The notes: generated by a model not told the origin, from the sequence alone. A stretch of 64,000 nucleotides of DNA from an uncultured Ectothiorhodospiraceae bacterium (GCA_964564245.1 CAZMAK010000001.1:48989-112988); one strand, 5' to 3'; shown: positions 15,477 through 32,359, counted from the first letter of the stretch. A program made the numbers and translations.

Positions 15477-18400
15477 TCACGGCGTGCACTGGATCTGGAT
15501 GTTGTCGAACCAGACTTCATCAGCCCACCCCAGCGTGGAAGAGCTGAGCAGCCGGATGGCGGTCGTACCCGAAATATAGGCACTGATATCCTGGCTGAAC
15601 GACCGGTAGCCGTAATCCGTACCCCAGCCCTGGAAGCGGGTGAGTTCGGTCCACGGCCCCGCCGACCCGTTGCTGGACACCTGCAGGGCCACATAATCGC
15701 TGCTGGTATCCAGCTGGTTGCGGCGATACTGCAATGACAACGTAGCCGTGGTCGCACCCGCCAGGTTGGCCTCGCGCAGCACACCCTCACCACCCCCGTC
15801 GTTATCCCGCACGCGCAGCTGGTTGGTCCCCGGCGTGGCGCTGGCGGTCGAATCGGCCCCGACCCATTCATCACCCGACTGCGCACCGTCTGCCTCGTTG
15901 ACCTCCTGCCAGTCGCCGGTCCAGCTAAGTGTGCCGTCATTGCCGGAATAGTTGTGTGCATTGAAGTCGTCGCGGTAGGTGCCACTGCACCCTCCGCCAC
16001 CGCCGCCACCGCCACCGCCGCCACCGCCACCGGTCGGTGGCACCTGGTCGGCATCCACCAGCACGATACCGCGCGGACGGCTCAGGCCGGAGGAGACGAT
16101 GGTCTCCACGTTGCCGCCGTCGGGATCGGAGCGCTGCACCCGCTGGTTGAGCGCATCGACCCAGTAGATCCGGTCGTGGTCCGCATCGTAGGCGATGTCC
16201 TGTGGCGCGTTCAGCCCGGTCACGATGGTTTCCATGTTGCTGCCGTCGAGGTTGGCGCGCCTGATCCAGTCGTTGCTGGCCCCGCCGGTCCAGTACATCT
16301 TGCCGTTTACCAGGTCCAGCGCACTGCCGACGGCGCCGGTCGGCCCGGTCGTGAGCGTGGTCACGGAGCTGCCATTGACTTTCATGCTCGATACCCGGCC
16401 ACTGCCGAACTCGGTCAGGTACATCTTGCCTGCGGACTTGTCCAGGCTGAGATAGGACGGCCGGTTCAGGGTATTGTTGACGAGCGTGGCGCCGCTGCCA
16501 TCGAGGTTGGCGCTCATGACCCGGCTGGAACCGTTGTCGTGGGTCCAGTACATCTTTCCGCCGGCCACATCCAGCTTGATGTCGAAGGTCACGTAGGCAT
16601 CATTATAGACGACCTCGCTGTTGCTGCCGTCCAGGTTCGCGCGCCGGATCTGGTAATTGTTGGTCCAGTAGAGCTTGCCGTTGACGGTGTCGATATCCAG
16701 CCCGGTCGGGCGGTCCAGCCCGGTCAGTACATCCTCCACATCGCTGCCGTCCTCGTCCGAGCGCTGGATCTTGTTGGCGACATCATCGGTCCAGTACACC
16801 TTCTTCGGCGGGACGGCCGGCACTCCGTCCATGCCCCACTGGATGGCACGCTGCACCAGCAGGCGGCCGTTGTTGTTGAGGTAGTCCCAGTTGAACTTGC
16901 CGGCCCGCCCGACCGGGACCGAGATGATACGAGCAACTGCATTACCACCGCCGAACATCTGTGCACCGGCTTCGATGGCCGAGAGTCCGGTGGCCCCGTT
17001 CAGACGGCCTAACGCCTGCAGGCCCGGCGCCGGGTTGGCGGTGACGGTCGCACCCTCCATAGCGAGGTTCCCGAGCGGGATCACGCCGAGCGGGAACAGC
17101 GCGGTGATGAACTGGGTGTTATCGGCGATCCCGATACTGTCGGTGACGGTGTAGCTGCCAGGATCGGCCACCCCGAGATTATCGTACTGCTCGGCCGGTT
17201 CGGTGATGACGGCGATGGGCGCCCTTTTCAGCCGGTTGCCAAGCGTGGCATCCGCCACGGTGTTGGAAACGTACACGGCATCGTTAGCCCCCATGGCAGC
17301 ATTCATGGTGGACTGGTCGACTCCATCGTCGATCAGTGTCACCACGTAGCCCCAGGACTCGAACAGGGTTTTGCGGGTGATATCCGCGGCGGCGGGAGCG
17401 GCCGCGTTCCCGACCACCAGCAGCAGGCGACCGCTGCCCTGTGGCAACTGGCAGACCACCCCGCATTCGCAGGCAAAGGTCAGCGTGAGTTGCGGGTGCT
17501 GCGCCGCAGCGGGGCTGTCGCTGCTGGTGAAGTCGATATCGCCGGCATTGCCACCGCCCTCGCGTAACAGGAAACCAAAGTTGGGGGCACCATCCAGCCA
17601 GTCCTGGACCTGTGCAGTGACATCCCACTCGTACCAGCCAGGCGCCATGGTGGGCAGGGTTACGCTGTCAATGACCGCGGCATCATAGTCACCGCCGGGG
17701 TTATTCCAGGCGGTCAACCCATCGTAGCTCTGGTAGGTCACACCCGCACCGGGCGGTGGCACCTGGTTGTCAAAGCTGCCTTCCACCCAGGCATGGGTAA
17801 CCCGGTGCAGATCAAGCCGGCCGTTGGACACACCGGAGCCGCCTTCCAGGTACAGACCCAGGTGGGCATCGGTGATGCGCGCGCCGGGCGGCAATACCTC
17901 CAGCGCAAAGCGCAGCAGCACATTGCGGTCATTCTTGATGTTCAGAATGGAGGAAGCACCGAAATTCGTGTTCTTGTGGGCACCGGCCCAGACAAAGGCA
18001 TCCTGCAGCTCGGCACCCGGCTGCAGGGTCGCCGAACTGACCGGCTGATAGAGCGGAATATCGTTACGAACGATGGTGTAGCTGGCACCACTGTCCAGCG
18101 TACCGGTTGCGGTCACCGCGGCGCGGTTGGACAAATTGCCATCCGTATACCTGACCTCCAGGTATGGCCGGTGACTGGCATCGCTGTCTTCCTTGCTGGC
18201 GAACTCCGTGGTATCCGTGCCGAGCAGCGTGGAAGACACGATAAGTACGCCGTAGTTCGGCTGCGCGCCACTGACCCAGCCCTGCACCAGCGCGGTCAGG
18301 TTGACATCGGCATACTGATCCTGCGGCGTGCCGGCCGGGATGCTGGCGACCGTCGAGGCATCGAAACTGGTACCGATGCTGTTCCAGGTCACCGTGGCCT

Positions 18401-18983
18401 CGTCCCAGGACGCGGTCACGCGGTGCACTGTCACCGGCAAGGTGTGTTTGAACCGGGTGACATACCAGTGCGCCACGGCGGACACGATCGTGGCACTGGC
18501 CGGGATGCCGGCATTCTCGATGTCGAAGCGGTAGTAGGGCCGGTCGTAGTTGCCGCCGAGCAGGTTGCTTTCCAGGCGCAGCGTGCCGTCGCTGCCGTGG
18601 TTGGCGTTGCCGTTGTTCTTGTCGATCCAGGCATCGTCGCTGACCGGCACACTGACGTTCGAGATCGTACTGCCCACCTTGTTGACAGTGATGGTGGTCG
18701 AATAGTGATGGGCGCCGAACGGCACGCTGGACAGACCGGTATAGGGACCGCAACCGGCTGTATCGATCTGCTGCAGGGTATGTTGCAGGCCGGCCCTGGC
18801 GACGTACTCCGCCTGCGTGTGCCCGGCCACGGTGCCGGTGGCATTGAGTTCGACTGCAGAGCCATGATTGATCATGAAGGCGACCACGGCAACCAGTGCG
18901 ATCAGCAGCACCACCGGCAGCAGCACGAAACCACGCCGGTCGTTTGCACAGGCCACACGCCGTGTCGATCTGACTCGACTCAC
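15477..18983 (-). CDS. giant minor-pilin/adhesin fusion: GspK/PilX-like N-terminus, two carbohydrate-binding-like domains, YWTD beta-propeller, Gly14 linker, C-terminal lectin-like domain
   Basis: N-terminal RRGFVLLPVVLLIALVAVVAF is a pseudopilin-type helix lacking Glu5, as in GspK. Two copies of a beta-sandwich module ending W(D/V)E(A/G)T/S..W.N. Six YWTD/YWT(N/H) repeats (YWTDDVANKIQRSD, LYWTNNYQIRRANLDGSN, MYWTHDNGSSRVMSANLDGS and others), as in LDL-receptor class B propellers. Gly14 tract. Stop overlaps the upstream pseudopilin start. Confidence 0.7.
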   Translation of the reverse strand: MSRVRSTRRVACANDRRGFVLLPVVLLIALVAVVAFMINHGSAVELNATGTVAGHTQAEYVARAGLQHTLQQIDTAGCGPYTGLSSVPFGAHHYSTTITVNKVGSTISNVSVPVSDDAWIDKNNGNANHGSDGTLRLESNLLGGNYDRPYYRFDIENAGIPASATIVSAVAHWYVTRFKHTLPVTVHRVTASWDEATVTWNSIGTSFDASTVASIPAGTPQDQYADVNLTALVQGWVSGAQPNYGVLIVSSTLLGTDTTEFASKEDSDASHRPYLEVRYTDGNLSNRAAVTATGTLDSGASYTIVRNDIPLYQPVSSATLQPGAELQDAFVWAGAHKNTNFGASSILNIKNDRNVLLRFALEVLPPGARITDAHLGLYLEGGSGVSNGRLDLHRVTHAWVEGSFDNQVPPPGAGVTYQSYDGLTAWNNPGGDYDAAVIDSVTLPTMAPGWYEWDVTAQVQDWLDGAPNFGFLLREGGGNAGDIDFTSSDSPAAAQHPQLTLTFACECGVVCQLPQGSGRLLLVVGNAAAPAAADITRKTLFESWGYVVTLIDDGVDQSTMNAAMGANDAVYVSNTVADATLGNRLKRAPIAVITEPAEQYDNLGVADPGSYTVTDSIGIADNTQFITALFPLGVIPLGNLAMEGATVTANPAPGLQALGRLNGATGLSAIEAGAQMFGGGNAVARIISVPVGRAGKFNWDYLNNNGRLLVQRAIQWGMDGVPAVPPKKVYWTDDVANKIQRSDEDGSDVEDVLTGLDRPTGLDIDTVNGKLYWTNNYQIRRANLDGSNSEVVYNDAYVTFDIKLDVAGGKMYWTHDNGSSRVMSANLDGSGATLVNNTLNRPSYLSLDKSAGKMYLTEFGSGRVSSMKVNGSSVTTLTTGPTGAVGSALDLVNGKMYWTGGASNDWIRRANLDGSNMETIVTGLNAPQDIAYDADHDRIYWVDALNQRVQRSDPDGGNVETIVSSGLSRPRGIVLVDADQVPPTGGGGGGGGGGGGGGCSGTYRDDFNAHNYSGNDGTLSWTGDWQEVNEADGAQSGDEWVGADSTASATPGTNQLRVRDNDGGGEGVLREANLAGATTATLSLQYRRNQLDTSSDYVALQVSSNGSAGPWTELTRFQGWGTDYGYRSFSQDISAYISGTTAIRLLSSSTLGWADEVWFDNIQIQCTP
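15991..16034 (-). repeat. (GGN)14-15 trinucleotide tract encoding a poly-Gly linker
   Basis: Forward strand reads ccTCCGCCACCGCCGCCACCGCCACCGCCGCCACCGCCACC. Protein has TGGGGGGGGGGGGGGC. Confidence 0.8.
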
Positions 18984-19939
18984 AGCGCACCCCCGACCTG
19001 TACCCGGGTATCCAGGCTGACGCTCCGGCCACTGACGGGATCGGTCAGCACCAGCGAGATGGTAACGAGCACCGCGCCGGCGGCGGTCGCCGGCAGACGC
19101 TCGACACGAAACCCGCTGACCTGATCGGCAATGGCGGATTCGATGAAATCGCGCCCGTCCACGACGCCGCTGCCATCCACATCCCAGGGCACCGGCTGAC
19201 GGCGGATCAGCTGTGTACCCTTCAGGTAAAACACCACCGGGTCGAGCCAGTCCTCGTTGCTGGCGCCGTCCTCGTCATCGTCGCTGCTGCTGCCCTCGTC
19301 GACCGTCCCGTCCGCGTCATCGTCGACACCGCAGATGCCCGGACAGCCGTCACCGTTGAGATCAGCACCGGGGTCCTCGTCGGTGTTGCTGTCGTTGTCG
19401 TCGTCGATCCCGTTGACCGGATCGAGGTTGGCGGTCGCCGACTCGTCGTCCGAGTCCGCGGCCCCGTTATCGACCCTGCCGTCCCCGTTATCGTCGATCA
19501 GGTAGATCCCGGGCGCCGCGTCGTTGGTCCAGTCGGCCGGCGGGTCCTCGTCGAAACGGCCGTCGCCGTCATTGTCCGCATCGGGCGTGCCGTTGCCGTC
19601 CAGGTCGGTAACATGATCGAGCGTCACCGCGACCACATTGTTGATGTTCTCCGGGTAGGCGGTCGCGGTATCGTCGTTGAGCGGGACCAGCAGGTGCGGA
19701 CTGCGACCGACCGCCTGCACGATCTGGTCCATGGCAAAGCGCGCATCGCGGTTGAGCGCACCGGTCTCCGAAACCGAGTCGAGGGTATCGAGCACCTGGC
19801 CGGTGACGCCGTTCAGGGCGGCAAGCAGTAGCGCGGACAGGGCCAGCGCCAGCAGCAGTTCGACGAGGGTAAAACCGCGCTGGCAGGCAGACCCCGCCCG
19901 GCTGGAAGCGGCGGGCGAGGGCAATATCGGGCTAGTCAT
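18980..19939 (-). CDS. GspJ/PilW-like minor pilin with an Asp-rich thrombospondin-type-3-like calcium-binding repeat insertion
   Basis: Prepilin motif QRG|FTLVELLLALALSALLLA after a 21-aa leader. Central region has 9 or more DxDxDG/DxDGDG-type repeats (DLDGNGTPDADNDGDGRFDED, DDNGDGRVDNG, DDDADGTVDEG). ATG at 19939 overlaps the upstream gene stop by 8 nt. Confidence 0.65.
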   Translation of the reverse strand: MTSPILPSPAASSRAGSACQRGFTLVELLLALALSALLLAALNGVTGQVLDTLDSVSETGALNRDARFAMDQIVQAVGRSPHLLVPLNDDTATAYPENINNVVAVTLDHVTDLDGNGTPDADNDGDGRFDEDPPADWTNDAAPGIYLIDDNGDGRVDNGAADSDDESATANLDPVNGIDDDNDSNTDEDPGADLNGDGCPGICGVDDDADGTVDEGSSSDDDEDGASNEDWLDPVVFYLKGTQLIRRQPVPWDVDGSGVVDGRDFIESAIADQVSGFRVERLPATAAGAVLVTISLVLTDPVSGRSVSLDTRVQVGGAL

Positions 19940-20423
19940 GGGCACTGCGCAGGGTCTCCAGTGCCGTGTCGCCGATCTCCACCCGCAGCCAGAGCAGGTC
20001 CGCCTCGGTGCCGGTAAACGGGTCAGCATCGCCATCCGCGTTGTCGCTGTCGTAACGCGACAGGTAAACATTGCGGGTCACCGTCCTGCCGTCCTGGAAC
20101 GTGACCGTGTCACTGTAACTGCCCGGCGTGACCCGGCTGCCGGCCGCCGTCGCGGCCGCATCCAGCGCGGCAAACGGCTCTGCCAGCAATTCCTCCATCC
20201 GCCCGGCCACCGCAAAGTGATCCTCGACCCGGTTGGCGTGCGCCCCGGCAGCGGCTTCCCCGGGTGACAGGGCCTCCAGTGCCGGCGCCAGCGCCAGCAT
20301 GATCAGCACGATCGCAATCAGCACCTCGACATAACTGATGCCGGCCATGCGGGCGCAACCGGTTTTACGCACCCTGGCCGGGCGTCTCCCGCACGCCGGC
20401 CGCCACGTCGTTACCCGGTTCAT
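19932..20423 (-). CDS. GspI/PilV-like minor pilin
   Basis: Prepilin-like G|ISYVEVLIAIVLIMLALAP with Glu at +5. The ATG forms an ATGA overlap with the stop of the upstream H-like pilin gene. The track ORF extends further upstream. Confidence 0.5.
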   Translation of the reverse strand: MNRVTTWRPACGRRPARVRKTGCARMAGISYVEVLIAIVLIMLALAPALEALSPGEAAAGAHANRVEDHFAVAGRMEELLAEPFAALDAAATAAGSRVTPGSYSDTVTFQDGRTVTRNVYLSRYDSDNADGDADPFTGTEADLLWLRVEIGDTALETLRSAHD

Positions 20424-20962
20424 TGCACGCTCACCCGGCCGCTGCTGCCGTCCAGGGTCAGTACCCGCTGCCGGCCGGCGATCCTGAACACGAGGCTGGC
20501 CTGCTCCAGGAACACCGGGTACGGTTTGCGGCAGTACGGTGTACCGTGGCCGTCGAACAGCGTTTCTCCGGTGCTCGAACAACTGCCGTGGTATCGGGCG
20601 CTGCTGCTGACCGAATCCACGGCCAGGTACGGCTGTGCCGCCAGGTCCACCGTGTAGGGCTGCCTGCTGAGCGGGTCACGCATGTCATACACCGGTGTCG
20701 GCGGGCTGGTAGTCATGTCGGCACTGAACAGGCGGATGGCCGGCGGGTCCGTGGTGATGGCAAAACCATGGGGAATGCCGGTGCGGATCGCCTCGTTGCG
20801 TGCGAAGCGGATGGCGTCGGCAAAGGCCTGGCTGGCGGCATCCAGCCGCTCCGGACCGGTCGACGACAAAAAAGGGATTGCCGCACTCGCGGCAATCCCC
20901 AGTATTGCGATGACAACCAGCAGCTCTACAAGAGTCAGGCCATGACTACGCAACGCCCGCAT
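20420..20962 (-). CDS. GspH/FimT-like minor pilin
   Basis: MRALRSHG|LTLVELLVVIAILGIAA prepilin signal. Size and position after the major pilin fit GspH/FimT. Confidence 0.65.
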   Translation of the reverse strand: MRALRSHGLTLVELLVVIAILGIAASAAIPFLSSTGPERLDAASQAFADAIRFARNEAIRTGIPHGFAITTDPPAIRLFSADMTTSPPTPVYDMRDPLSRQPYTVDLAAQPYLAVDSVSSSARYHGSCSSTGETLFDGHGTPYCRKPYPVFLEQASLVFRIAGRQRVLTLDGSSGRVSVQ

Positions 20963-20995
20963 CGGTACCGGTTCTCATGCATGCGAGGCTGCGGG

Positions 20996-21574
20996 TCAGT
21001 AGGCGTCGAACTGGGTGCCGCTACTGTCCTTGGACGTGTCATCGGCGATGAACTTGCCGGAGGTGGTGTCATAGCGCCAGCCCCCGCCCGCAGCGGCAGC
21101 GGTCATGTCCAGATCCCCGGTGGTCTCGATGGCCACGGTACCGTTGTGGGTCACCGGATTGGCCGGCAGGTCACCCTTGATGTAGGGGCCGAACGGATAT
21201 TCCACGGCAGCCGTATCCGTTGTATCGGAAATGCTGCAGGTCTGACCGGTGGAATTGGAATAGTATTTCAGCTGCTCGACCACCGCTGCCTGGCTGTCGG
21301 CGGCGCCACTGCCGACCGTACCACCGGTGCAGGTACCGCCACTCGAGGCCACCGCACCCGGGAACGCCCCGCTGTGCTGCTGGGTATACAGGTCAATGGC
21401 GCTGCGGATGCCGGACAGGTCGGAACGCAGTGCCGAGGCGGCGGCATCACCCGTCGAGGAGGCGAACTGCGGCACCACGATCGCGGCCAGGATGGCCAGG
21501 ATGATGGCGACGATCAACAATTCAACAAGGGTAAAACCTTCCTGGTTTGCCCTGTTCCCGTGTAGCGTAGTCAT
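20996..21574 (-). CDS. major type IV pilin / pseudopilin (MshA/GspG-like)
   Basis: Leader MTTLHGNRANQEG then FTLVELLIVAIILAILAAIVVPQF. C-terminal Cys pairs. AGGAG RBS 7 nt before the ATG at 21574. First gene of the G-H-I-J-K series. Confidence 0.75.
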   Translation of the reverse strand: MTTLHGNRANQEGFTLVELLIVAIILAILAAIVVPQFASSTGDAAASALRSDLSGIRSAIDLYTQQHSGAFPGAVASSGGTCTGGTVGSGAADSQAAVVEQLKYYSNSTGQTCSISDTTDTAAVEYPFGPYIKGDLPANPVTHNGTVAIETTGDLDMTAAAAGGGWRYDTTSGKFIADDTSKDSSGTQFDAY

Positions 21575-21882
21575 GGTTAACTCCTGTTCGCCCATATAGT
21601 ATGGTTTGGACAAACGGGGTATCGGCAAGTACCCGGGCGGCTTTAAAATATCAGGTTAATTAAGAGCTTCCAGCCACCCACCGCCATGACCGATGCTCTC
21701 CCGGCGAGCAACCGGATTTAACCATATAAACAGTGGGTTATCTATCTTCCGGACCTGGCTGACGGTGGCAAATCGCTTCAGGCTCGCCAGCTTGCAGAGC
21801 TGTGTGCGGGTAACTACTATAGCCCTGCATACGAGAAAACATATTCTTGCGCATACACAATAATGATTACGGAGGCTCTGTC

Positions 21883-22608
21883 ATGCAATTATTACGCACT
21901 GGCTGCGTGGTTCTCGCCTGTCTCGCAGGAGTTTCTCTAGAGGCCAACGCCCTCACCATTGACTTCGGCACGGTTAAGGATGCCAACGTGCAAAGCGACA
22001 GTTCCGGTCCGCTCGGGGGTGGCAGCGCAATCCTCGATCCCTTTACAAACAGTAGCTACAGCATCGATTCCTACATCGGATTTGATATCGCTGACTTTCA
22101 GTCGCTCGGAAACCCGGCTGTCGACGTTTCCCTCGATCTGTATGGCTTTGCTGCAAGAACCTCGCTGGTCCTGAATATCTATGGACTGAACGATCTGGTA
22201 TCTCCCGGCTGGTCAGAAAGCACCATCGACTGGACCAATGCACCCGGAATACAGTCAGATTCGATTGATCCTGCCACAACGACCCTGTTGTTTTCGGGGT
22301 CGGTCAGCTATACAGCGAATAACGTCATCAGCTTCAGTGACAGTTCTTTTGCTGATTTCATTAACAGCGACACAGATGGCCTGGTCACCTTCATTCTCAC
22401 GCAGCCAACCGCTACCAGCGAAAACCACGCATTCAGCAGCAAGGAATCCTCTGGCAATCCCGCTATCGGTCTCCCGGGTGACTATGCGCCCACACTGCAC
22501 ATTACAGCAGCGCCCGTCCCCGCCGCTGTCTGGCTGTTCGGTTCCGGCCTGCTGGGGCTGATCGTTGTGGCGCGGCGCCGGCACCGCGCCTCAGTGCACC
22601 GCCTGTGA
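21883..22608 (+). CDS. PEP-CTERM-anchored secreted protein with a carbohydrate-binding-like beta-sandwich domain
   Basis: Signal peptide MQLLRTGCVVLACLAGVSLEA. Domain ending WSESTIDWTNAPG is the same module as in the giant pilin-adhesin. C-terminus PVPAAVWLFGSGLLGLIVVARRRHR matches the PEP-CTERM sorting-signal architecture (VPxx, TM, RRR). GGAGG RBS before ATG 21883. Confidence 0.6.
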   Translation: MQLLRTGCVVLACLAGVSLEANALTIDFGTVKDANVQSDSSGPLGGGSAILDPFTNSSYSIDSYIGFDIADFQSLGNPAVDVSLDLYGFAARTSLVLNIYGLNDLVSPGWSESTIDWTNAPGIQSDSIDPATTTLLFSGSVSYTANNVISFSDSSFADFINSDTDGLVTFILTQPTATSENHAFSSKESSGNPAIGLPGDYAPTLHITAAPVPAAVWLFGSGLLGLIVVARRRHRASVHRL

Positions 22609-23715
22609 CAGCTTGAAGATCGGCAGGATCAGCGAACTCACGATCAGACCGACCACGGCACCCATGACGATCAGCATGACCGGTTCCACCATGCGCGAGA
22701 AGGTTGCCAGGTTGCGCGCCAGTTCGCGTTCGTAATAGAGCGCGATCCGCCCCAGCACCAGCGGCAGCTTGCCGGTTTCCTCCCCGGTGGTCACCATCTG
22801 GCTCACCATCGGTGGAATGAAACTCGCGGTCTGGAATGCAGCGGAAAAACCGCCGCCCTCGTTGACCGTTTCCTCCAGCCCGGTCAGGAAGCGGCGGAAC
22901 TCCCGGTTGGCAACCACCTCACGGCAGGCGGACAGGGCGTCCGGCACGCTCACGCCATGTTCCAGCGACAGGCCCAGTACCCGCAGCGACTGGATCAGGT
23001 ATATCCGGGTATAGATGTCGCGCAGGCCGAAGGCCGACAGCTTGAACCGGTCGAGCGCGGCACGACCGGCGTCACTTCGAAGCCACCACACCAGCAGGGC
23101 CACTGCAACCGCCACGCCGGCGCCCAGTTCCGGCCAGTACCGGACAAGGAAATGACTGAACCGCATCAGTACCAGCGTGGTGACCGGCAGCTTGTCGGCA
23201 ATGCTGGCAAACATGACGGCGAACTTCGGGAACACCTCCATCAGCACGAACACCACGACAAACAGCGAGAATGCGATCAGGAAGGCCGGGTAGGACAGGG
23301 CGGAAGTCACGGTACGGCGCAGCTCCATCCGCTTCTCGTCCATGTTTTTCAGCTCCAGCAGCACACTGTCCAGAAAGCCGCCCTGCTCCGCGGCCGCGAC
23401 CAGCGTGACGTAACTGACCGGGAACATGTCCGGGAAGTGGGTCAGTGCCCGGGAAAAGGAATTCCCGCTGGTCACCTGTTCCTGCAGCCGGTTGATGATG
23501 GCCGCCATGGCCGGATTCGCGACCTGTTTGCCCAGCGCGTTCAGCGCGGCATGCAGGGGGGTGCCCGTCTCCAGCAACAGCGACAGCTGCTCGGTAAAGA
23601 AGATACGGTCCTGCACACCGGGCCTGTGTCGCGCAAACAGTCGCGTGCGCGGTTTCGGAGTTGCCAGTGCGGCCTTCCGGGCAGTCTCCCGCAACGCGGT
23701 TATTTCAAGCGCCAT
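22591..23715 (-). CDS. type II/IV secretion platform protein (GspF/PilC/MshG family)
   Basis: Two T2SS-F repeats and three TM segments. Conserved C-terminus GE(E)TGKL...L...YYERE. Confidence 0.85.
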   Translation of the reverse strand: MALEITALRETARKAALATPKPRTRLFARHRPGVQDRIFFTEQLSLLLETGTPLHAALNALGKQVANPAMAAIINRLQEQVTSGNSFSRALTHFPDMFPVSYVTLVAAAEQGGFLDSVLLELKNMDEKRMELRRTVTSALSYPAFLIAFSLFVVVFVLMEVFPKFAVMFASIADKLPVTTLVLMRFSHFLVRYWPELGAGVAVAVALLVWWLRSDAGRAALDRFKLSAFGLRDIYTRIYLIQSLRVLGLSLEHGVSVPDALSACREVVANREFRRFLTGLEETVNEGGGFSAAFQTASFIPPMVSQMVTTGEETGKLPLVLGRIALYYERELARNLATFSRMVEPVMLIVMGAVVGLIVSSLILPIFKLSQAVH

Positions 23716-23725
23716 GCGGGTGACT

Positions 23726-23895
23726 CCTGGGAGCCTGTCGGGCCTGGGCGATCGTAGCGAGCCGTGTGGGAGAACGAGGCCATTTTTCCGATCGTTCGAG
23801 GAGAATAGCCGTCGCTATTTGACGAGGAGGAGCGGAACAATGGACCGCTGTCCCACCGGCGCAGTAGATCAGTCCCAGGTCCGACAGGCTCCTAG
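23726..23895. mobile_element. MITE/REPIN-like element (about 170 bp) with 21-bp terminal inverted repeats
   Basis: CCTGGGAGCCTGTCGGGCCTGG (23726-23747) and its near-perfect inverted copy CCAGGTCCGACAGGCTCCTAG (23875-23895) bound the ATPase-platform intergenic region. 19 of 21 positions match. The left repeat contributes part of the platform gene RBS. The right repeat contains the ATPase stop codon. Confidence 0.55.
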
Positions 23896-25931
23896 ACATT
23901 GATGACACGGGAAACCTCCTCGATCGTGGTTTCACCCGCCCGCACGTGATCCAGGCCATCGACAAACAGATTGCGGAAATCCCGCTCATGTAGATGCCGG
24001 TGCAGCTCGTCGCGCCCCGGACTGGTGGTGATCAGGCGTTGCAACGATTCATCACATTGCAGCACCTCGTGTATACCCATGCGCCCGCGATAGCCGGAAT
24101 CGTAGCATTCGTTACAGCCACGCCCGCGCGCCAGCTGCACCTGCCCGTCCCAGCCGAACCGGCTGATCAGGCCCGGTTCGGCCACATAGCGCGTCTTGCA
24201 GGCCGGGCAGATGACGCGGACCAGCCGTTGCGCAACCACGCCGATCAGTGCGGAGGACAGCAGATACGGTTCCACGTCCATATCGATCATGCGCGTGATT
24301 GCGCCGATCGCATGATTGGTGTGCAGGGTCGACAGCACCAGATGGCCGGTCAGGGCCGCCTGCACGGCGATTTCCGCCGTCTCGCGGTCACGGATCTCAC
24401 CCACCATCACGATATCCGGATCCTGGCGCAGCGTGTGGCGCAGGATGGTGGAGAAGGTCAGGCCGATGTGCTCATGCACCTCGTTCTGGTTGACCACCTC
24501 GATCTGGTATTCGACCGGATCCTCGATGGTCACGATGTTCTTTTCCATGCTGTTGAGGTAGTTCAGCGCGGCATACAGCGAGGTGGTCTTGCCGCTGCCG
24601 GTCGGTCCGGTGACCAGGATCAGTCCGTGGCTGCTGTCGAGCAGGGACTTGAACAGGGTCAGGTTGCCCGCGCTCATGCCGAGCTTGTTGACGTCCAGCA
24701 GCGAACGGTTCTTGTCCAGCACGCGCAATACCACCTTCTCCCCGAACAGGCCCGGCAGTGAACTGAAGCGCAGGTCCACCGCGCGACCCTGGGTACGTAC
24801 CTGGATACGGCCGTCCTGCGGCATGCGACGCTCGGCGATATCCAGGTTGGCCATCACCTTGAGACGGGAGACAATGGCCGGGTGGTATTCGGCACTGAGC
24901 GTGGTGACCTCGTACAACACCCCGTCGATACGGAAGCGTACGCGGGTCCGGTTTCGTGACGGCTCGATGTGAATGTCGCTGGCGCCGTCACGGATCGCGC
25001 GCTGGACCAGCGAATTGACCAGGTTGACGATCGGACTGCCTTCCGCCATCTCGTCGATCGCGGCGTAGTCGTCGCGGGCAATATTCTCGACCACGGTAAA
25101 GTCGGCATCGACATCGCCGATCAGTTCAATGGTGTCCACGTTACCTGCGTAGGCATCGTTGAGGGCGTTCAGGATGTCCTCGCGCCGTGCAATCACCGGC
25201 TGCACGCGGCAACCGGAAAGCTTCTCGACCTCGGCGAACGCGGGCATGGCCTGCGGGTCCGAGGTGGCCAGGAACAGCACATCATGTATCTTCTGCAGCG
25301 GCAGCATCTGCAGGCGTTTCGCAACCCGCATGTCGATGATTCCCGTCACGGCAGGATCGTAGATACCGGCACGCAGGCGCACGCAGGGAATCGACAGCTG
25401 TTCACCCAGCGCGGTCAGCACGTCCTGATCGGACACCCACCCCTTGTCGATGATGATCTGCCCCATGCGCCGCGACGTCCGCTTCTGCAGCTCGATCGCC
25501 TCGGCAATACGTTCCTCCGTGATCAGACCCCGTTCCAGCAGGATATCTCCCAGGCGTTGTGTCCCGCCGCTGCGCGTAGTGCGTTGCACGGGGTCCACGT
25601 CCACCATGGGGACATAACTGGAAAACGAGGTAAGCGTCAGGATATCCAGCACGATCGTGTTGGCTCGCGCCAGCTTCAGCCAGCCGCCCTGCCGTACCGC
25701 CTGTTCCTGGATGTCTACCAGCGCCTCCAGCGCCGCACTGTTGAGCAGCTTGACCGATCCCAGGTCCACTACGAGCTGTGCATCGCCCGGTCGCATGCTT
25801 TCGTTCGCGGCGGCCGTCAGCGCCCGGATATCCTCATCACTGAGCAACGAGGTACGTGGCACCAGCTGGGTCATCACGCCCACGCGGGTACGCAACACCT
25901 CGCTCGTCAGATATTCGGGTGAAACACTCAT
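23892..25931 (-). CDS. pilus extension ATPase of the GspE/MshE family with N-terminal STAS-like domain and MshEN-type c-di-GMP-binding motifs
   Basis: Walker A GPTGSGKT, Asp box, His box, CPACK Zn motif. MshEN motif RLGDILLERGLITEERIAEAIELQKRT at about residue 118. The preceding 110 aa (LVVDLGSVKLLNSAALEALVDIQEQAVRQGGWLKLARANTIVLDILTLTSF) align with SpoIIAA-type STAS domains. 679 aa, versus about 575 aa for canonical MshE. Confidence 0.9.
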   Translation of the reverse strand: MSVSPEYLTSEVLRTRVGVMTQLVPRTSLLSDEDIRALTAAANESMRPGDAQLVVDLGSVKLLNSAALEALVDIQEQAVRQGGWLKLARANTIVLDILTLTSFSSYVPMVDVDPVQRTTRSGGTQRLGDILLERGLITEERIAEAIELQKRTSRRMGQIIIDKGWVSDQDVLTALGEQLSIPCVRLRAGIYDPAVTGIIDMRVAKRLQMLPLQKIHDVLFLATSDPQAMPAFAEVEKLSGCRVQPVIARREDILNALNDAYAGNVDTIELIGDVDADFTVVENIARDDYAAIDEMAEGSPIVNLVNSLVQRAIRDGASDIHIEPSRNRTRVRFRIDGVLYEVTTLSAEYHPAIVSRLKVMANLDIAERRMPQDGRIQVRTQGRAVDLRFSSLPGLFGEKVVLRVLDKNRSLLDVNKLGMSAGNLTLFKSLLDSSHGLILVTGPTGSGKTTSLYAALNYLNSMEKNIVTIEDPVEYQIEVVNQNEVHEHIGLTFSTILRHTLRQDPDIVMVGEIRDRETAEIAVQAALTGHLVLSTLHTNHAIGAITRMIDMDVEPYLLSSALIGVVAQRLVRVICPACKTRYVAEPGLISRFGWDGQVQLARGRGCNECYDSGYRGRMGIHEVLQCDESLQRLITTSPGRDELHRHLHERDFRNLFVDGLDHVRAGETTIEEVSRVINV

Positions 25932-28135
25932 TGGATGCAGCGCCGGGACCCGCCGGTATGCAGGGACTCCAGGTAGCCCGTCAGGGGTGACGGCCTGTCG
26001 ATGCCGTATCCCTGCAGATAGTCCACGCCCATCCGCGTCAACTGTTCGGCAATGGCGTCGTTTTCCACGTATTCGGCAATCGTCTTCAGTCCCATGACGT
26101 GACCGATCTGTATGACGGAAGCCACCATGGCGGAAGACACCGGGTCCTCGAGTATCTGCCGCACGAAGGAGCCGTCGATCTTCACGTACTCGACCGGCAG
26201 GCCCTTCAGGTAACTGAACGAACTCAATCCGGTCCCGAAGTCATCCAGCGAGAAACGGCAACCGATCGCCTTCAGTTGCCCGATGATCGCTAGCGCCGCC
26301 TCCCGGTTACCGATCGCGGCCGTTTCGGTCACCTCGAAACAGAGACAGTCCGGTGCAATGCGGTACTCACCGATCTTTCCGGTAATGTAGGTCGCAAGCT
26401 CCAGGTCGGCAAGCGACTGTCCGGACAGGTTGATGGAGACGATGCCCTGCCCCGCACTCCCGGCGATGCCGGCCTCGGCCAGGCTGGCCAGGGTTGCATT
26501 GATCACCCAGCGATCGATGGACGGCATCAGGTTGAACTGTTCCGCCGCCGGCAGGAAGCTGTCCGGGCTGAGCAGGTGACCGTCCTCGTCGACCAGCCGC
26601 ATCAGTACCTCGAAATGGAACTGTTCGCCGTTCGCGGAAACCGGCCGGATGGTCTGGCAATGCAGCATGACCCGGTCTTCGCGCAATGCCCTCTGGATAC
26701 TCGCCACGCACTGGATGTTACTACGCCGCGTCGCCAGCCCGGTGTCATCCTCACCAAATGCCTGGATCTGGCCGGTGCCCAGCTCCTTGGCGGCCGCGCG
26801 CGCGAGCTCGGCTGATTCCATCGCCTCACCGGCACTGGCGGTCTGCGGCCCGACCATGACCACACCGGTAGCCATCTGCAGGTCGATGGAGGCGGAATCC
26901 AGGTGTATCTGGTCACGCTGCACATGATCGCGCAACATGTACGCGACCCTCACACCCTGATCGATCCCGGTCCTTTCCAGCAGTACGCCATAGCGGCCCT
27001 CGCCGAGATACCCGATGGTATCCGTACCGCGCAGCTTGTTGCGCAACTTCTCGCCGACGATACGTATGACGGTGTCACCGGCCTTGCGGCCGTAGGTCTC
27101 GTTGATGACCTGCAGGCGCCCGATGTCGATATTCAGCAGACAGTGGTGCAGACCTTCACCGCTGGCATCCTGTATGGCCCGCTGCAGCACGGTCTCGAAG
27201 GCATGCGGGTTCATCAGTCCGGTCAGCGTATCGTAGTTGGCCTGCGTGATCTTGGCGATTTTCCGGCCCATGACCTTGAGCAGGTTGCGGTCGCTGTTGA
27301 AAAAGTCCGGCCGGTAGATGTGGTTAAGACAGACCAGCACCCCCTCGATCTCGCCACGGGCGTTGACTACCGGGCAAGACAGCAGCTTGTAGGGGATATC
27401 GAGGGAGAGTTCCTCACGTCGCTGGTCATAGAGTTCATTGATCAGCAGGCAATCGGGCTGTGTAATGGCATACGGCAGGAACTTCCCGGCCAGCACCTCG
27501 AACAGCTCATCGGGATGCAGTACCGGATCGCGCGGGCCGGCGGCATACAGGGTGCGCCTCCGGTCCGGGTAAAACAGCGCCACCATGTCGACATCGAGAT
27601 ACTCGACGTAGCTTTCGACCAGCGATGTCAGTGCGACATTTTCCTGCTCGATGCTGGCGCTCTCTTCCACATCGTAGACCAGGTTCAGCTCGTCGTAGCG
27701 ACCGGCCAGTTCCCTGGCCATGGTATCCAGTTCGACAGTCAGGCGGTATTCCTTTTCCACACACCCCACGATACAGGCGAAGGCCGCGTTCACGGCGGCA
27801 TCCAGCCCGTCGGCGGGCAGCTCGTCACCGGGATCACCCGTGCCGATGAGCCATCCTGCGCACCTGTCGGCCGGTGTGCGGATTTCCATCAGGCAGGTGA
27901 TGATCCCGTCGTTGCGTTCCACCACAAGCCGCCGGCCGGTAGCCGGCACTGCATGGATTCCCGCCGCATCGACGTTGAAGCGTGTCCGGGAAATCTGCGC
28001 AGCGTTGTCCGTATCACCGTCCAGTACCAGCCCGGCACAGTCACACACGTAGAGATCCAGGCCACGCGGCAGTAGCTGGCGCAGCAGCGCGAAATAGTTC
28101 CCTAAACCGATCTGGCTCAACGGACCTGCCGGCAT
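25928..28135 (-). CDS. c-di-GMP phosphodiesterase: sensor (GAF/PAS-like), degenerate GGDEF, EAL
   Basis: EAL-domain motifs EVLMRL, DDFGTG, KIDGSF. The GGDEF position reads GEGRYGV, which is degenerate. ATGA-type overlap with the ATPase start (25928/25931). Confidence 0.85.
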   Translation of the reverse strand: MPAGPLSQIGLGNYFALLRQLLPRGLDLYVCDCAGLVLDGDTDNAAQISRTRFNVDAAGIHAVPATGRRLVVERNDGIITCLMEIRTPADRCAGWLIGTGDPGDELPADGLDAAVNAAFACIVGCVEKEYRLTVELDTMARELAGRYDELNLVYDVEESASIEQENVALTSLVESYVEYLDVDMVALFYPDRRRTLYAAGPRDPVLHPDELFEVLAGKFLPYAITQPDCLLINELYDQRREELSLDIPYKLLSCPVVNARGEIEGVLVCLNHIYRPDFFNSDRNLLKVMGRKIAKITQANYDTLTGLMNPHAFETVLQRAIQDASGEGLHHCLLNIDIGRLQVINETYGRKAGDTVIRIVGEKLRNKLRGTDTIGYLGEGRYGVLLERTGIDQGVRVAYMLRDHVQRDQIHLDSASIDLQMATGVVMVGPQTASAGEAMESAELARAAAKELGTGQIQAFGEDDTGLATRRSNIQCVASIQRALREDRVMLHCQTIRPVSANGEQFHFEVLMRLVDEDGHLLSPDSFLPAAEQFNLMPSIDRWVINATLASLAEAGIAGSAGQGIVSINLSGQSLADLELATYITGKIGEYRIAPDCLCFEVTETAAIGNREAALAIIGQLKAIGCRFSLDDFGTGLSSFSYLKGLPVEYVKIDGSFVRQILEDPVSSAMVASVIQIGHVMGLKTIAEYVENDAIAEQLTRMGVDYLQGYGIDRPSPLTGYLESLHTGGSRRCIQ

Positions 28136-28527
28136 TGCCGCTCTCCTCCGGAATCGTCGTTGCTGAAATATTCCTTCAGCCTGGCCAGCAGCCGGCGGAT
28201 GCTTACCGGCTTCTCCAGAAAGTCCAGGTTGCCTATGCCCTGTGACCAGCGGCGGAGTTCGTCTTCCGCGCGCGCGGACAGGACATAGATGCCGAAGCTG
28301 CGCCCGGGCATCTCCTCGGCGATCCGGTCACACAGGTCCCTGCCGCTCATCTGCGGCATATCGATGTCCGTGATCAGCAGATCCGGGGGATTGCCGCGGA
28401 TTTTTTCCAGGGCCTGGCAGCCGTTACAGGCCTCGTCCGTCGAATAGCCGGCCGCGTCCAGCGCCAGCTTCAGCACCCGGATCACATGTGGTTCGTCGTC
28501 AACGAGCAGAATTCGTTTCCCGGTCAT
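28117..28527 (-). CDS. single-domain response regulator (receiver only)
   Basis: ILLVDDE...DLLITDIDMPQMSG...K receiver motifs. No output domain. Overlaps the kinase stop and the PDE start. Confidence 0.8.
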   Translation of the reverse strand: MTGKRILLVDDEPHVIRVLKLALDAAGYSTDEACNGCQALEKIRGNPPDLLITDIDMPQMSGRDLCDRIAEEMPGRSFGIYVLSARAEDELRRWSQGIGNLDFLEKPVSIRRLLARLKEYFSNDDSGGERQCRQVR

Positions 28528-30383
28528 ACCGCCCGCCTCAGCAGTTCAGCTTCCTTGTCGAACTCGATGACAAATTCCGATCCTTCGCCAGGCGCGCTGT
28601 TCACCGTCAGTGTCCCGTGGTGAAGCTGGATGATCTCGCGCGCCAGCGCCAGCCCGAGACCATGCCCGCTCCTGCGGGACACCTCTTCGTTCTGCGAACG
28701 ATAGAACTTGTCGAATATCTTCTCCTGCTCCTCCGGCGAGATACCGATCCCCTTGTCCCGGACGGATACTCGCACGGTCCGTTCCGTTTCCTCGACGGCC
28801 ATCCTGACCATGCCGTGCTCGTCGCTGTACTTGATCGCATTGGTCAGCAGGTTATTGACAGCGATACGGATCAGGTCCTTGTCCAGCGCCACCGGGCTGA
28901 TCTCGTGGGGCAGGTCGAGCTGGAAATCGATGTGCTTTTCCTGCCCCCCGCGGGCACAGGCATTGAAGGTGTCCTCGAGCAGGTCCCGCAGCTTCACCCG
29001 CTTGCGCTCGATGGATATGCTGCCGGTCTCGATCTTGGTGATGCTGAGGATGTTATTGATCAGCAGGGCAAGCCGTTCGACCTCGTCATGAATGATATTG
29101 GCCGCCTCGATGCGGAACTGTTCGCGTCCGCCCTCCGCGCCCTGCAGCATCTCGCTGTACATCGCCAGGACATTCAGCGGCGTCTTCAGTTCGTGTGAAA
29201 CGTGCGCAACGAACTCTCCACTGCTGTCCCGCGCCAGTTTCTCCGCGGTGATGTCACGGAACACGACCAGGGTACCGGGCGGCTCGGCGGTATCCTGCGG
29301 GGAAAACAGCGGGTAGGGGGAAATCGCGAAGGTGCGGCCCGGCAGCGATCCCGGCGTGTATTCGAGCGCATCGCTGTGATACCCGTGACTCCTGCGACCA
29401 CCCTGGCCGGAAAGAAAGGCAATGATCCCGGGATCCTTGCACCATTCCACCGGCTTCTTGCCGACGATATCCCGGTTGCTGACATCCAGCAGCTGTCCAA
29501 CCCTGGCATTGGCGAGACTCACGGTACCGCTTTCATCCAGCACCAGGACTGCCTCCGGGAACGATTGCAGCACGGACTCGACACGCGAACGCCGGTAACC
29601 AAGCAGCTTTGCCGAGGTCTCCAGCTGTGTACGATCCTCCTCCAGCTCGCCGATCCGGTGTTGAGACGCATCGATGAAGCGGTTGAAACGCTCCATGAAA
29701 TCCTGCAATTCCGCACTCGCGGCAAGCTCCACGCTGCCGGCAAGCCCGTTGCCGCCCATCAGTGTGTCCAGTCGCGTATTGACCTCCCGGACGGGACGCA
29801 CCTCCCTGCGCAACAGAAGATAAAACAGCGGGGTCAGCAAGAAGATCGGCAGGGCGAAGCTCGCCACAAATTCCAGCTGGTCCGGCCTTGGTCCGACGAC
29901 AGGCTGCAGGTATCCGAGACGGACATACCCGGCAAGCTGGTCATGCTCGAACAGCGGGGCATGAAATTCGATCATCTTCCGGTTACTGCCGGGCATCACC
30001 AGACGGCGTTGCCCGACCCAGCCGGCGGGCTCGGTTGGCAACGATGCGGCAGGGACGACGACATCGTTTCCGGCGATCTCCTCCACCATGCGGCCCCCGG
30101 CATCCACGATCTCCAGATAGGCCAGGTCCGAGGTGCCGCGTATCTGCTGCAGGATGGAAAGGATCCCGGCCTTGCCGGTCTCCGGGACAAACCGGGCGTA
30201 GGGGATACGCGTCAGGATGCGGACCAGGCTGGCGCCCTGGCTTTGTATGTTGTTTTCCTCACTGCGCTGCTGGTAGCGAAACAGCAACAGGACGGTGATC
30301 GCGATCACCGCCAGCGACGCAACGATCATGGTCAGCCCGAGTCGCTCTTTTCTCCATGCGCTCGCCAACCTGCTGAGAGGCAT
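28524..30383 (-). CDS. sensor histidine kinase (periplasmic sensor, HAMP, PAS, HisKA, HATPase)
   Basis: H-box VSHELKTPLN. G-boxes DKGIGI and GHGLGL. Two TM segments flanking a roughly 150-aa periplasmic region. Confidence 0.85.
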   Translation of the reverse strand: MPLSRLASAWRKERLGLTMIVASLAVIAITVLLLFRYQQRSEENNIQSQGASLVRILTRIPYARFVPETGKAGILSILQQIRGTSDLAYLEIVDAGGRMVEEIAGNDVVVPAASLPTEPAGWVGQRRLVMPGSNRKMIEFHAPLFEHDQLAGYVRLGYLQPVVGPRPDQLEFVASFALPIFLLTPLFYLLLRREVRPVREVNTRLDTLMGGNGLAGSVELAASAELQDFMERFNRFIDASQHRIGELEEDRTQLETSAKLLGYRRSRVESVLQSFPEAVLVLDESGTVSLANARVGQLLDVSNRDIVGKKPVEWCKDPGIIAFLSGQGGRRSHGYHSDALEYTPGSLPGRTFAISPYPLFSPQDTAEPPGTLVVFRDITAEKLARDSSGEFVAHVSHELKTPLNVLAMYSEMLQGAEGGREQFRIEAANIIHDEVERLALLINNILSITKIETGSISIERKRVKLRDLLEDTFNACARGGQEKHIDFQLDLPHEISPVALDKDLIRIAVNNLLTNAIKYSDEHGMVRMAVEETERTVRVSVRDKGIGISPEEQEKIFDKFYRSQNEEVSRRSGHGLGLALAREIIQLHHGTLTVNSAPGEGSEFVIEFDKEAELLRRAV

Positions 30384-30708
30384 TCCATTACTCCGATCAG
30401 GAAATGTTACAAGGAGGATAGCGGCAGAAAATCACATGGCTTGAACAAGTTATGTTCACCGCAGTGACGTGGAATCACCCCGCCGGGAGGCAGGCTCACC
30501 GTACACGGAAGTCCGGTGGCCAGGAGGAAGGCAGGCGCCTGTCCCCCGGAATCAGGAAACGGGGTCGTACGGCAGGATCACCGGGGGTGGGGACCACCGC
30601 CGGGGGAACATCACCGGCTTCATCCGGCCCGTCCAGGGACCGGCCCGGCGCCAGCGCGAACCTGGATCCCGACGCGGGTACGCAGACCGCGTGCCCGCGT
30701 CCGGCCGG

Positions 30709-32072: not shown

Positions 32073-32101
32073 TTGACAGGCCACGGCACAGAAGGCGTAA
32101 T
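32073..32101 (+). promoter_or_regulatory. candidate sigma-70 promoter (TTGACA-17nt-CGTAAT) in an AT-rich island
   Basis: TTGACA at 32073-32078. 17-nt spacer. CGTAAT at 32096-32101. Lies about 40 nt upstream of the small ORF RBS. Confidence 0.35.
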
Positions 32102-32335: not shown

Positions 32336-32359
32336 CCCGACACGAACCTCCATTTCCGA

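Follow-up and report, generated by a model that had tools for sequence, protein, structure and literature searches.

A conserved four-gene cassette joins two-component and c-di-GMP signalling genes to a STAS-MshEN assembly ATPase at the head of a type IV filament cluster

The stretch of DNA analysed here is a 64-kb window from an uncultured Ectothiorhodospiraceae bacterium (GCA_964564245.1 CAZMAK010000001.1:48989-112988; positions are given in the numbering of the whole stretch). On its minus strand it carries a cassette of four overlapping open reading frames (ORFs), which encode, in the order of transcription, a sensor histidine kinase of 619 amino acids (aa) (28524..30383; Pfam architecture PAS-HisKA-HATPase_c), a stand-alone receiver (REC) of 136 aa (28117..28527), a predicted phosphodiesterase (PDE) of cyclic di-GMP (c-di-GMP) of 735 aa (25928..28135; GAF-GGDEF-EAL) and a pilus/secretion assembly ATPase of 679 aa (23892..25931; STAS-MshEN-T2SSE by Pfam, with NCBIfam support). 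The cassette heads a type IV filament cluster of approximately 22 kb located on the same strand. The GC content of the window is 62%, and the third-position GC of the four cassette ORFs (0.78-0.80) is typical of coding sequence in the window. A preliminary description of the locus had proposed a single translationally coupled operon with these four genes; its coordinates of the ORFs and their overlaps (28524/28527, 28117/28135 and 25928/25931) were confirmed from the sequence, and the domains it assigned to all four proteins, as well as the motifs EVL, DDFGTG, KIDGSF and GEGRYGV, were all present.

The kinase and receiver genes are joined by a 4-nucleotide (nt) ATGA overlap. The receiver and PDE genes overlap by 19 nt, and a Shine-Dalgarno sequence (GGAGGAG) precedes the PDE start codon at 28135; both this overlap and the PDE N-terminus are retained in the nearest orthologous loci (L002-L004). 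The PDE and ATPase genes again share a 4-nt ATGA overlap, and no Shine-Dalgarno-like sequence was found in the 5-13 nt preceding the ATPase start codon. Reinitiation after termination of PDE translation is therefore the obvious route by which the ATPase could be started, which suggests that synthesis of the two proteins is coupled. Overlaps are common in the window (14 of 35 same-strand neighbour pairs in a crude gene call), so that they provide no evidence by themselves, three consecutive ones having a chance probability of about 0.06, which is only mildly unusual. It is the way the arrangement is conserved, described below, that goes beyond chance.

The presumed promoter region is the 325-nt intergenic gap upstream of the kinase gene (30384..30708, minus strand), beyond which lies an alpha/beta-hydrolase gene (30709-31527). 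Scanning for consensus sequences revealed no sigma-70-like promoter within the four-gene block or upstream of the kinase gene. Matches to the sigma-54 consensus were as numerous as expected (39 seen versus 37.7 expected), and none was found in the relevant intergenic regions. No convincing terminator was detected within the block either: the sole minus-strand candidate was a stem of 5 bp within the coding part of the ATPase gene, and the totals of terminator-like matches equalled the shuffle expectation. A search for riboswitches (including those for c-di-GMP) and other Rfam families in and around the operon returned only two chance-level matches (positions 18000-33000, E <= 1). Independent promoters or terminators between the genes, which had been named beforehand as an argument against a single operon, were thus not found by consensus scan. 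The four genes, together with the platform gene in most relatives, are best explained as one transcription unit.

Conservation of the cassette was examined from its two most distinctive proteins. The scan from the PDE side, with one genome per species, yielded 80 loci. At ten of these, full-length PDE orthologs (30-59% identity) were encoded, with a STAS-MshEN ATPase gene immediately downstream in all ten; where the contig reached far enough, kinase and receiver genes were found upstream and genes for the platform, pilins and a CBM96 protein downstream. The remaining 70 loci matched the generic GGDEF-EAL part only, and a pilus ATPase was present in none of them. From the other side, a word-indexed search with the STAS region alone gave no matches, at the limit of sensitivity of the index, while an exhaustive phmmer search of 1.84 billion cluster representatives recovered 245, of which 55 had E <= 1e-10. 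The best matches were the N-termini of STAS-ATPases, and the small number of matches indicates that the architecture is rare. Look-ups and a metagenome scan added 68 further loci, and dereplication at about 90% identity led to 58 STAS-ATPase lineages. Only those lineages whose contig reached far enough were regarded as testable. Among them, the PDE gene lay immediately upstream of the STAS-ATPase gene in 44/44, a receiver gene upstream in 42/42, a kinase gene upstream in 33/33 and the platform gene immediately downstream in 31/31. The receiver gene was always located between the kinase and PDE genes. The distance between the kinase and receiver genes was 20 nt or less in 41/42 cases, and the 4-nt ATGA overlap was the commonest state of the PDE/ATPase junction (23/42). 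The relatives are labelled as Gammaproteobacteria, Thiohalobacterales or Arenicellales, and one is an endosymbiont of a Lamellibrachia tubeworm. The window itself matched metagenome contigs from JGI.

The order kinase-receiver-PDE-motor is hence invariant in every testable related lineage; the functional links between the products are inferred. The reading we favour, with a probability only slightly above even (roughly 0.55), is that the cassette may act as a dedicated signalling unit for a filament machine resembling mannose-sensitive haemagglutinin (MSH) or type IV pili (T4P), with the signal passing from the kinase to the phosphorylated receiver, the PDE and finally the motor. The genes might instead be only co-expressed, the kinase and receiver feeding another pathway or the receiver serving as a phosphate sink, with a PDE that works on the c-di-GMP pool of the whole cell. 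Sequence gives no proof of physical or kinetic coupling, and several other c-di-GMP and two-component proteins encoded in the window could cross-talk with the cassette. We nevertheless regard mere co-expression as highly improbable, as the gene order is maintained down to about 32% PDE identity in dozens of lineages, with overlapping or nearly abutting junctions.

The enzyme in the middle of this proposed pathway was described first as an intact EAL domain combined with a degenerate GGDEF domain. The EAL domain (residues 479-715; nt 25991-26701) scored 211.3 bits with PF00563, compared to a gathering score of 31.3. As established by the enzymology of RocR and TBD1265, the catalytic and metal-binding residues of EAL domains comprise ExLxR, N, ExxE, DD(FGTG), KxD, E(G/Y)VE and QG. 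All ten positions (E509, R513, N569, E601, E604, D631, D632, K652, E688 and Q708) are present in the window PDE and align with those of the structure 5XGB. They were also invariant in 62/62 distinct PDE orthologs (32-99% identity); residue conservation was computed over these 62 PDEs and over 60 ATPases. Careful alignment thus left no catalytic residue missing, and by residue criteria the protein is predicted to be an active EAL phosphodiesterase, which would hydrolyse c-di-GMP to pGpG.

The GGDEF domain (residues 299-454; nt 26774-27241), assigned by Pfam and alignment, is catalytically dead but retains its I-site. It carries GEGRY (378-382) in the place of the signature and DIGRL (337-341) in the place of DxDFK, and lacking both the signature and the catalytic Lys it does not qualify as a diguanylate cyclase. 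The Lys of DxFK was absent from 62/62 orthologs, whereas 21/62 kept the letters GGDEF. Degeneracy of the signature is specific to the subclade of the window, and it is the DxFK Lys that was lost family-wide. The RxxD I-site (RGTD, 369-372) lies five residues ahead of the signature, and its R and D were kept in 60/62 orthologs, which suggests that c-di-GMP feeds back on the PDE through this site. The preliminary description was therefore correct about the EAL domain and, for the window PDE itself, about the degenerate GGDEF (GEGRYGV), but it overlooked the I-site, the GAF domain and the N-terminal domain. The GAF domain (residues 169-294; nt 27254-27631) was recognised by Pfam and by a profile match to the GAF domains of PDE6 and PDE2. 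The N-terminal region (residues ~1-110) had no family match and was weakly conserved among orthologs; a word-indexed search with the N-terminal 300 aa gave 2 matches only, and a profile search of this part against the PDB recognised the GAF domain only. Between these regions, alignment of the orthologs revealed a conserved helix, ELxxMAxELxxRYEELNLVYD (residues ~129-155; nt 27671-27751), with R146, Y147 and E149 invariant. The helix, unassigned to any family, is better conserved than any other part of the protein outside the EAL domain, and the receiver is a candidate for docking there.

Among solved structures, PDB 5XGB (PA0861; E = 1.4e-98 over residues 296-718) comes closest to the GGDEF-EAL part. 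We take PA0861 to be RbdA of P. aeruginosa, the PDB entry being titled only 'Uncharacterized protein PA0861'. Both RbdA (PAS-GGDEF-EAL) and, by prediction, the window protein are active EAL phosphodiesterases with a regulatory GGDEF domain. RbdA, however, keeps GGDEF and DxFK, and binding of GTP activates its EAL domain, whereas the window PDE has lost the GTP-site residues and keeps the I-site only. In addition, RbdA is not known to be linked to a pilus operon.

Another protein for comparison is FimX of P. aeruginosa (REC-PAS-GGDEF-EAL, with all domains except PAS degenerate), whose EAL domain is catalytically degenerate and serves as a c-di-GMP sensor. Like the window PDE, it is a GGDEF-EAL protein with degenerate GGDEF that is dedicated to a pilus ATPase (PMC5595344); unlike FimX, the window PDE has all EAL residues intact, and its sensors are the N-terminal domain and GAF. 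A catalytically inactive PDE of the FimX kind was ruled out by these intact residues, invariant throughout the orthologs. A related possibility is that the PDE works mainly as a trigger enzyme or scaffold (similarly to FimX or PdeR of E. coli) and less as a bulk sink of c-di-GMP, docked on the ATPase (perhaps through STAS) and controlling the motor by the occupancy of its EAL site and I-site with c-di-GMP instead of by the nucleotide pool. RxxD is the best conserved feature of the otherwise dead GGDEF domain, adjacency of the PDE and ATPase genes is obligatory and their ATGA coupling frequent, and complexes of FimX with PilB, and with PilZ and PilB, are established (PMC11656802, PMC5595344). 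Moreover, as the ATPase has its own c-di-GMP site, a physical complex would give a local module. We consider this rather improbable, because the invariance of the EAL catalytic residues, in which the family differs from FimX or LapD, argues that hydrolysis matters. The sole candidate for a PDE-ATPase fusion, a 670-aa GGDEF-EAL-STAS-MshEN ORF (P0023), was rejected: about 40 residues following QGY are unrelated, and it probably represents a metagenome frameshift.

Upstream of the PDE in the proposed pathway, the kinase has two predicted transmembrane helices, read from the translation, around a periplasmic domain of ~130 aa; residues 1-194 gave no family match. The transmembrane region is followed by a linker, a PAS domain, HisKA with the H-box HELKTP and HATPase_c, as assigned by Pfam. 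HELK(S/T)P was found in 37/39 kinase orthologs, with the His and Glu invariant in 39/39. In HisKA kinases, the HExxT motif goes with phosphatase activity, and its presence in HELKTP predicts such activity for the window kinase. The receiver scored 84.6 bits with PF00072 over residues 6-117 of 136. Response_reg was its sole Pfam match, in agreement with the earlier claim that it has no output domain, and its phospho-acceptor and switch pocket is complete (D10, D11, D54, S84 and K105). D54 and K105 were kept in 47/47 orthologs, position 10 was Asp or Glu, and D11 together with Thr or Ser at position 84 was kept in every ortholog variant listed. The protein thus has the features of a single-domain (CheY-like) response regulator. 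An internal contrast to this split receiver is provided by the fused REC-GGDEF-EAL gene at 57622-59427, which is overlapped by 1 nt by a gene for a CHASE8 hybrid kinase (REC-REC-Hpt), the pair occupying 57622-62363 on the minus strand.

At the downstream end of the cassette, the ATPase was first described as a c-di-GMP receptor, and this prediction was supported by motif, profile and fold. The protein begins with a STAS domain (residues 1-110; nt 25602-25931; PF01740 and Foldseek) and a flexible linker, continues with the tandem MshEN motif (residues 126-178; nt 25398-25556), the rest of MshEN extending to ~262, and ends with a T2SSE core (461.7 bits in Pfam) with the Walker A sequence GPTGSGKT and a CxxC...CxxC zinc motif. 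The tandem c-di-GMP-binding motif with a 5-residue spacer was defined on V. cholerae MshE (PMC5013675); residues 126-178 of the window ATPase, RLGDILLERGLITEERIAEAIELQ followed by KRTSR and RMGQIIIDKGWVSDQDVLTALGEQ, match both published motifs and the spacer. NCBIfam NF053729 scored 64.7 bits against a cut-off of 38. An AlphaFold2 (AF2) model of residues 1-270 (pLDDT 87) was superposed by Foldseek on the MshE-c-di-GMP structure 5HTL (E = 3e-10, TM-score 0.83-0.85, root-mean-square deviation 2.0-2.3 A). Within MshEN, G128, Q149 and Q178 were invariant in the 60 ATPases, position 126 was Arg or Lys in 60/60, and R155 was Arg in 59/60. Sequence matches of the ATPase in the PDB were PilB, GspE and MshE.

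Similarity to V. cholerae MshE therefore comprises the tandem 24-residue motif with its spacer, the fold, the GspE/PilB-type core, the zinc motif and, at the level of the locus, the presence of PilMNO-like genes and a secretin in the surrounding pilus cluster. The two differ in that MshE has no STAS domain, and in that the PDE, kinase and receiver of the window are encoded directly upstream of the motor in the same operon. In V. cholerae, the enzymes that set the c-di-GMP level for MshE are encoded elsewhere in the genome.

Assignment of the STAS domain by sequence was borderline (PF01740 24.9 versus 22.6; PF13466 27.6 versus 29.2; TIGR00377 27.6 versus 53.45), but the model was superposed by Foldseek on the STAS antagonists TM1081, RsbV, RsbS and SpoIIAA with TM-scores of 0.70-0.86, for which reason we consider the predicted domain a genuine STAS fold. 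In common with SpoIIAA, RsbV, RsbS and TM1442, it carries a serine at the phosphorylated position: S65 aligns with Ser59 of TM1442 and was kept in 58/60 orthologs. It differs from these antagonists by its fusion to an ATPase and by the TIGR00377 score below cut-off. D56, G82 and G83 were invariant, and the surface motif formed by D56, S65 and GGW (82-84) nearly so. A partner-switching kinase or phosphatase for the domain was sought within the window, and the Pfam scan of its ~58 predicted proteins detected no kinase of RsbW/SpoIIAB type and no PP2C phosphatase. The STAS domain may provide the motor with an additional input of the docking or partner-switch type.

This brings in the possibility that the phosphorylated receiver acts directly on the ATPase, through STAS or elsewhere, and alters its activity or localisation, while the PDE sets c-di-GMP independently and is not controlled by the kinase. 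STAS domains are modules of protein-protein switches, and the one described here has a fold confirmed by the model and a nearly invariant surface motif. The receiver and the STAS-ATPase occurred together in all testable lineages, and the PDE has sensors of its own (GAF, N-terminal domain and I-site). The receiver gene nonetheless adjoins the PDE gene, and in the window overlaps it. Two kinds of related loci are also informative. In L033 (7416-11821), a kinase-receiver-PDE triad is found without an ATPase gene and is followed by dsbB and serine dehydratase genes; its PDE has also lost the RxxD I-site. Conversely, a distant STAS-MshEN-T2SSE clade (L082, 10001-12022; L083, 2042-4063) has no kinase, receiver, PDE or pilus genes nearby, and its STAS-ATPase genes converge on a HisKA-REC-guanylate cyclase gene and an FHA gene. 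From these cases it follows that the triad and the STAS-motor are separable modules, although almost always joined. Because the triad persists without the motor and the STAS-motor without a receiver, control of the PDE by the receiver is given the edge, and direct control of the ATPase seems to us somewhat unlikely.

There is also a small chance of a more elaborate arrangement, in which the motor, through its STAS domain, becomes the centre of a self-contained local c-di-GMP module and the PDE, possibly also the phosphorylated receiver, docks on this domain by partner switching. Enzyme and receptor would then reside in one complex, in a stoichiometry set by translational coupling, and the kinase input would assemble or dissolve this complex instead of changing the cellular c-di-GMP pool; we regard all this, taken jointly, as doubtful. 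If true, it would represent a new use of STAS partner switching and a compact test case for 'local' second-messenger signalling.

To return to the signalling unit we favour, the following sequence of events can be envisaged. An envelope or redox-type signal would be transmitted by the kinase to the phosphorylation state of the receiver, and the phosphorylated receiver would bind the PDE and alter its EAL activity. The PDE would lower the local concentration of c-di-GMP to which the MshEN site of the ATPase, a product of the same mRNA, is exposed. If V. cholerae MshE is a valid analogy, the c-di-GMP-bound ATPase would drive pilus extension and attachment, and an active PDE would turn the pilus off. 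The cassette would then be an off-switch, or an on-switch if the phosphorylated receiver inhibits the PDE. Termination and reinitiation at ATGA would tie synthesis of the ATPase to that of the PDE, which would favour a local enzyme-receptor pair. The I-site and GAF domain might represent two more inputs to the PDE, namely c-di-GMP itself and the GAF ligand, and the N-terminal domain might add another. Binding of c-di-GMP is required for the function of MshE/PilB (PMC11656802).

Several points weigh against this reading. Its weakest link is the target of the receiver, and direct control of the ATPase is a serious rival, as there are documented cases of receivers without output domains that bind PilB directly, with an effect on its ATPase activity: EmvR of X. 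oryzae represses PilB (PMC11973254) and DrdR of X. campestris enhances PilB/PilT (PMC13507683). Both proteins, like the cassette receiver, consist of a receiver only, act downstream of a kinase and, as that rival supposes for the window, bind pilus motor ATPases. They differ in being encoded by orphan genes, apart from motor and PDE, and in targeting PilB proteins without STAS, so that they are uninformative about the STAS domain. The argument from separable modules, for its part, consists of one triad-only locus and one clade of orphan ATPases. For the sign of regulation the reading relies on V. cholerae, and c-di-GMP left the in vitro ATPase rate of C. perfringens PilB2 unchanged (PMC11656802). 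Translational coupling is not universal: in the closest relatives (L002-L004), the PDE and ATPase genes are separated by ~90 nt. The promoter of the cassette was not located by the sigma-70 and sigma-54 consensus scans, the AF2 model of the PDE N-terminal region was poor (pLDDT 49.5) and was left out of the fold search, and the relatives are all uncultured, known as metagenome-assembled genomes or metagenome contigs.

It is well established that c-di-GMP controls type IV pilus motors. In the organisms studied, however, the enzymes, adaptors and motors involved are encoded at separate sites in the genome, which makes it hard to show which one, among dozens of cyclases and phosphodiesterases, serves which receptor. 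In Xanthomonas, the PdeK, PdeR, FimX, PilZ and PilB genes are dispersed and are not known to form one operon. In the PdeK-PdeR-FimX-PilZ-PilB pathway, a kinase-activated EAL protein acts on the localisation of PilB (PMC11656802). The parallel with the cassette is close: in Xanthomonas, and by our reading in the cassette, a histidine kinase controls an active EAL phosphodiesterase, and lowered local c-di-GMP governs the extension ATPase. There are, however, differences. The receiver of PdeR is fused to the enzyme, while that of the cassette is a separate ORF and the window PDE has no REC match; and PilB of Xanthomonas, which is itself unable to bind c-di-GMP, depends on the adaptors FimX and PilZ, while the window ATPase has an MshEN site. 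The annotated genes of the cluster included none for PilZ or FimX. In a literature search, no mention of STAS together with MshE was found; where STAS was searched together with PilB, the STAS mentions examined were an abbreviation of subtomogram average and an author name, and other titles and abstracts were off-topic.

The operon wiring and the STAS-motor fusion thus appear new and undescribed, while the parts are familiar. The novelty, as read from the sequences, would lie in a receiver split from its enzyme, a motor predicted to read c-di-GMP without FimX or PilZ, the presence of STAS on this motor, and the union of all these in one conserved operon. With its sensor, relay, degrading enzyme and receptor-motor encoded together in a single operon throughout dozens of lineages, the cassette offers a minimal set of four proteins with which the question of 'local versus global c-di-GMP pool' could be addressed by reconstitution, either in vitro or in a heterologous host. 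Fusion of STAS to an MshEN ATPase would add an undescribed regulatory input to a pilus/secretion ATPase. Judged by record labels, the carriers are uncultured gammaproteobacteria of sulfur-cycle type, for which surface attachment is ecologically central.

The cluster headed by the cassette is organised as follows. The platform protein (GspF/PilC family, 374 aa; 22591..23715, minus strand; Pfam T2SSF 1.4e-52) is followed by a pilin block (18980..21628, minus strand) with four pilin-like genes recognised by N_methyl/GFxxxE motifs in their translations: a GspG-like major pilin of 210 aa (20996-21628), a GspH-like minor pilin (20420-20962), a third ORF (about 19932-20360) and a fourth (18980 to about 19939). 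The same order of pilin genes was found in L084. Next comes a protein of 1168 aa that contains DNRLRE/CBM96 repeats and a beta-propeller (15477..18983, minus strand), a candidate pilus adhesin or secreted substrate, whose position behind the minor pilins is conserved in L006, L009 and L084. Further along the minus strand are genes for an HDOD protein (13525-14427, between the CBM96 giant and pilM), a membrane GGDEF protein (12185-13372), PilM (10900-12036), PilN (10257-10907), PilO (9694-10257), a PilP-like small ORF (~9282-9700) and a secretin (7901-9385). The membrane GGDEF protein has intact GGDEF and DxDxFK (DxDNFK) motifs and no RxxD I-site, and by these residues it is likely to be a local source of c-di-GMP for the same motor. 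The GGDEF and HDOD genes are missing from the equivalent position in L084 and L009, which places them outside the conserved core.

These genes bear on the question of what kind of machine is being controlled, since the ATPase, platform protein and major pilin all scored best against type II secretion system (T2SS) models (GspE, GspF and GspG, respectively). A type II-like secretion system exporting CBM96/DNRLRE proteins, its secretion gated by the cassette, can thus be considered, the more so as large proteins of this kind are conserved in the cluster and c-di-GMP-binding MshEN ATPases occur in T2SS too (PA14_29490; PMC5013675). Yet all three scores were below the equivalog cut-offs. The ATPase, although within the T2SSE superfamily, belongs to neither the GspE nor the PilB equivalog (TIGR02533, 593.3 versus 630.25; TIGR02538, a nearly equal 567 versus 675.65), and the platform protein reached 281 versus the GspF cut-off of 424. 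PilM, PilN, PilO and the PilP-like gene accompany the secretin, and no GspC, GspL or GspM was detected in the cluster. The gene of the 1168-aa protein follows the minor pilins, as would be the case for a tip adhesin. Given the scores below every cut-off and the presence of PilMNO, we call the machine an MSH/T4P-like filament system and regard the secretion system as unlikely.

The interpretation in the preliminary description was supported as far as sequence and comparison of loci can reach, the corrections being confined to the GGDEF degeneracy and the layout of the platform and pilin genes. It stated that platform and pilin genes follow the cassette. Both are indeed present, but a 163-nt hairpin and a gene on the opposite strand intervene, and neither these nor the likely diguanylate cyclase and the HDOD protein figured in its account of the cluster. 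The intervening gene (21847..22608, plus strand) converges on the platform gene, whose end it overlaps by 18 nt, thus breaking the minus-strand run. Its product is a secreted protein with a DNRLRE/CBM96 domain and a VPLPA/PEP-CTERM sorting signal, and an ortholog (67%) is present at the same place in L003. A PEP-CTERM/exosortase substrate is associated here, by position, with a pilus cluster.

The hairpin (23730..23892, minus strand) is long and imperfect, resembling repetitive extragenic palindromes (REPs) or miniature inverted-repeat transposable elements (MITEs), with a fold energy of -98.8 kcal/mol (z = -6.5). It is situated between the ATPase stop codon and the Shine-Dalgarno sequence of the platform gene, in a gap of 176 nt. 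The corresponding gap has a median of 10.5 nt among orthologs, which indicates a local insertion in the window. A terminal arm of the hairpin, GGAGCCTGTCGGRCCTGG, is repeated at 36806-36824, immediately behind the stop codon of an ORF of 92 aa, where it has no partner arm. An intrinsic terminator was rejected, as no T-run follows and a Shine-Dalgarno sequence and ATG lie directly downstream. So was a conserved regulatory RNA, as the hairpin is mostly missing in orthologs; the hairpin may nevertheless set differential expression of the platform gene. In L003, the orthologous ATPase-platform gap contains a different and unrelated long palindrome (14343-14486; z = -4.5). Two independent hairpin insertions have occurred at the same junction. 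An IS200/Y1-type transposase gene is located inside the pilus cluster (14549-15328, plus strand), and it may be REP-associated (RAYT-like) and related to the palindromic elements.

Finally, two further pairs of regulatory genes were observed on the minus strand of the window. At 38880-42013, a gene for a sigma-54 activator (REC-AAA-HTH_8) has a 4-nt overlap with that for a CHASE4-HAMP kinase. The two are PilR/PilS-like and could drive expression of the pilins, although no sigma-54 consensus was found upstream of the pilin gene. At 3696-6898, just past the secretin and an acyltransferase gene, a hybrid histidine kinase gene (4547-6898) overlaps a REC-PAS gene (3696-4547) by 1 nt, and this pair may be another regulator of the cluster.

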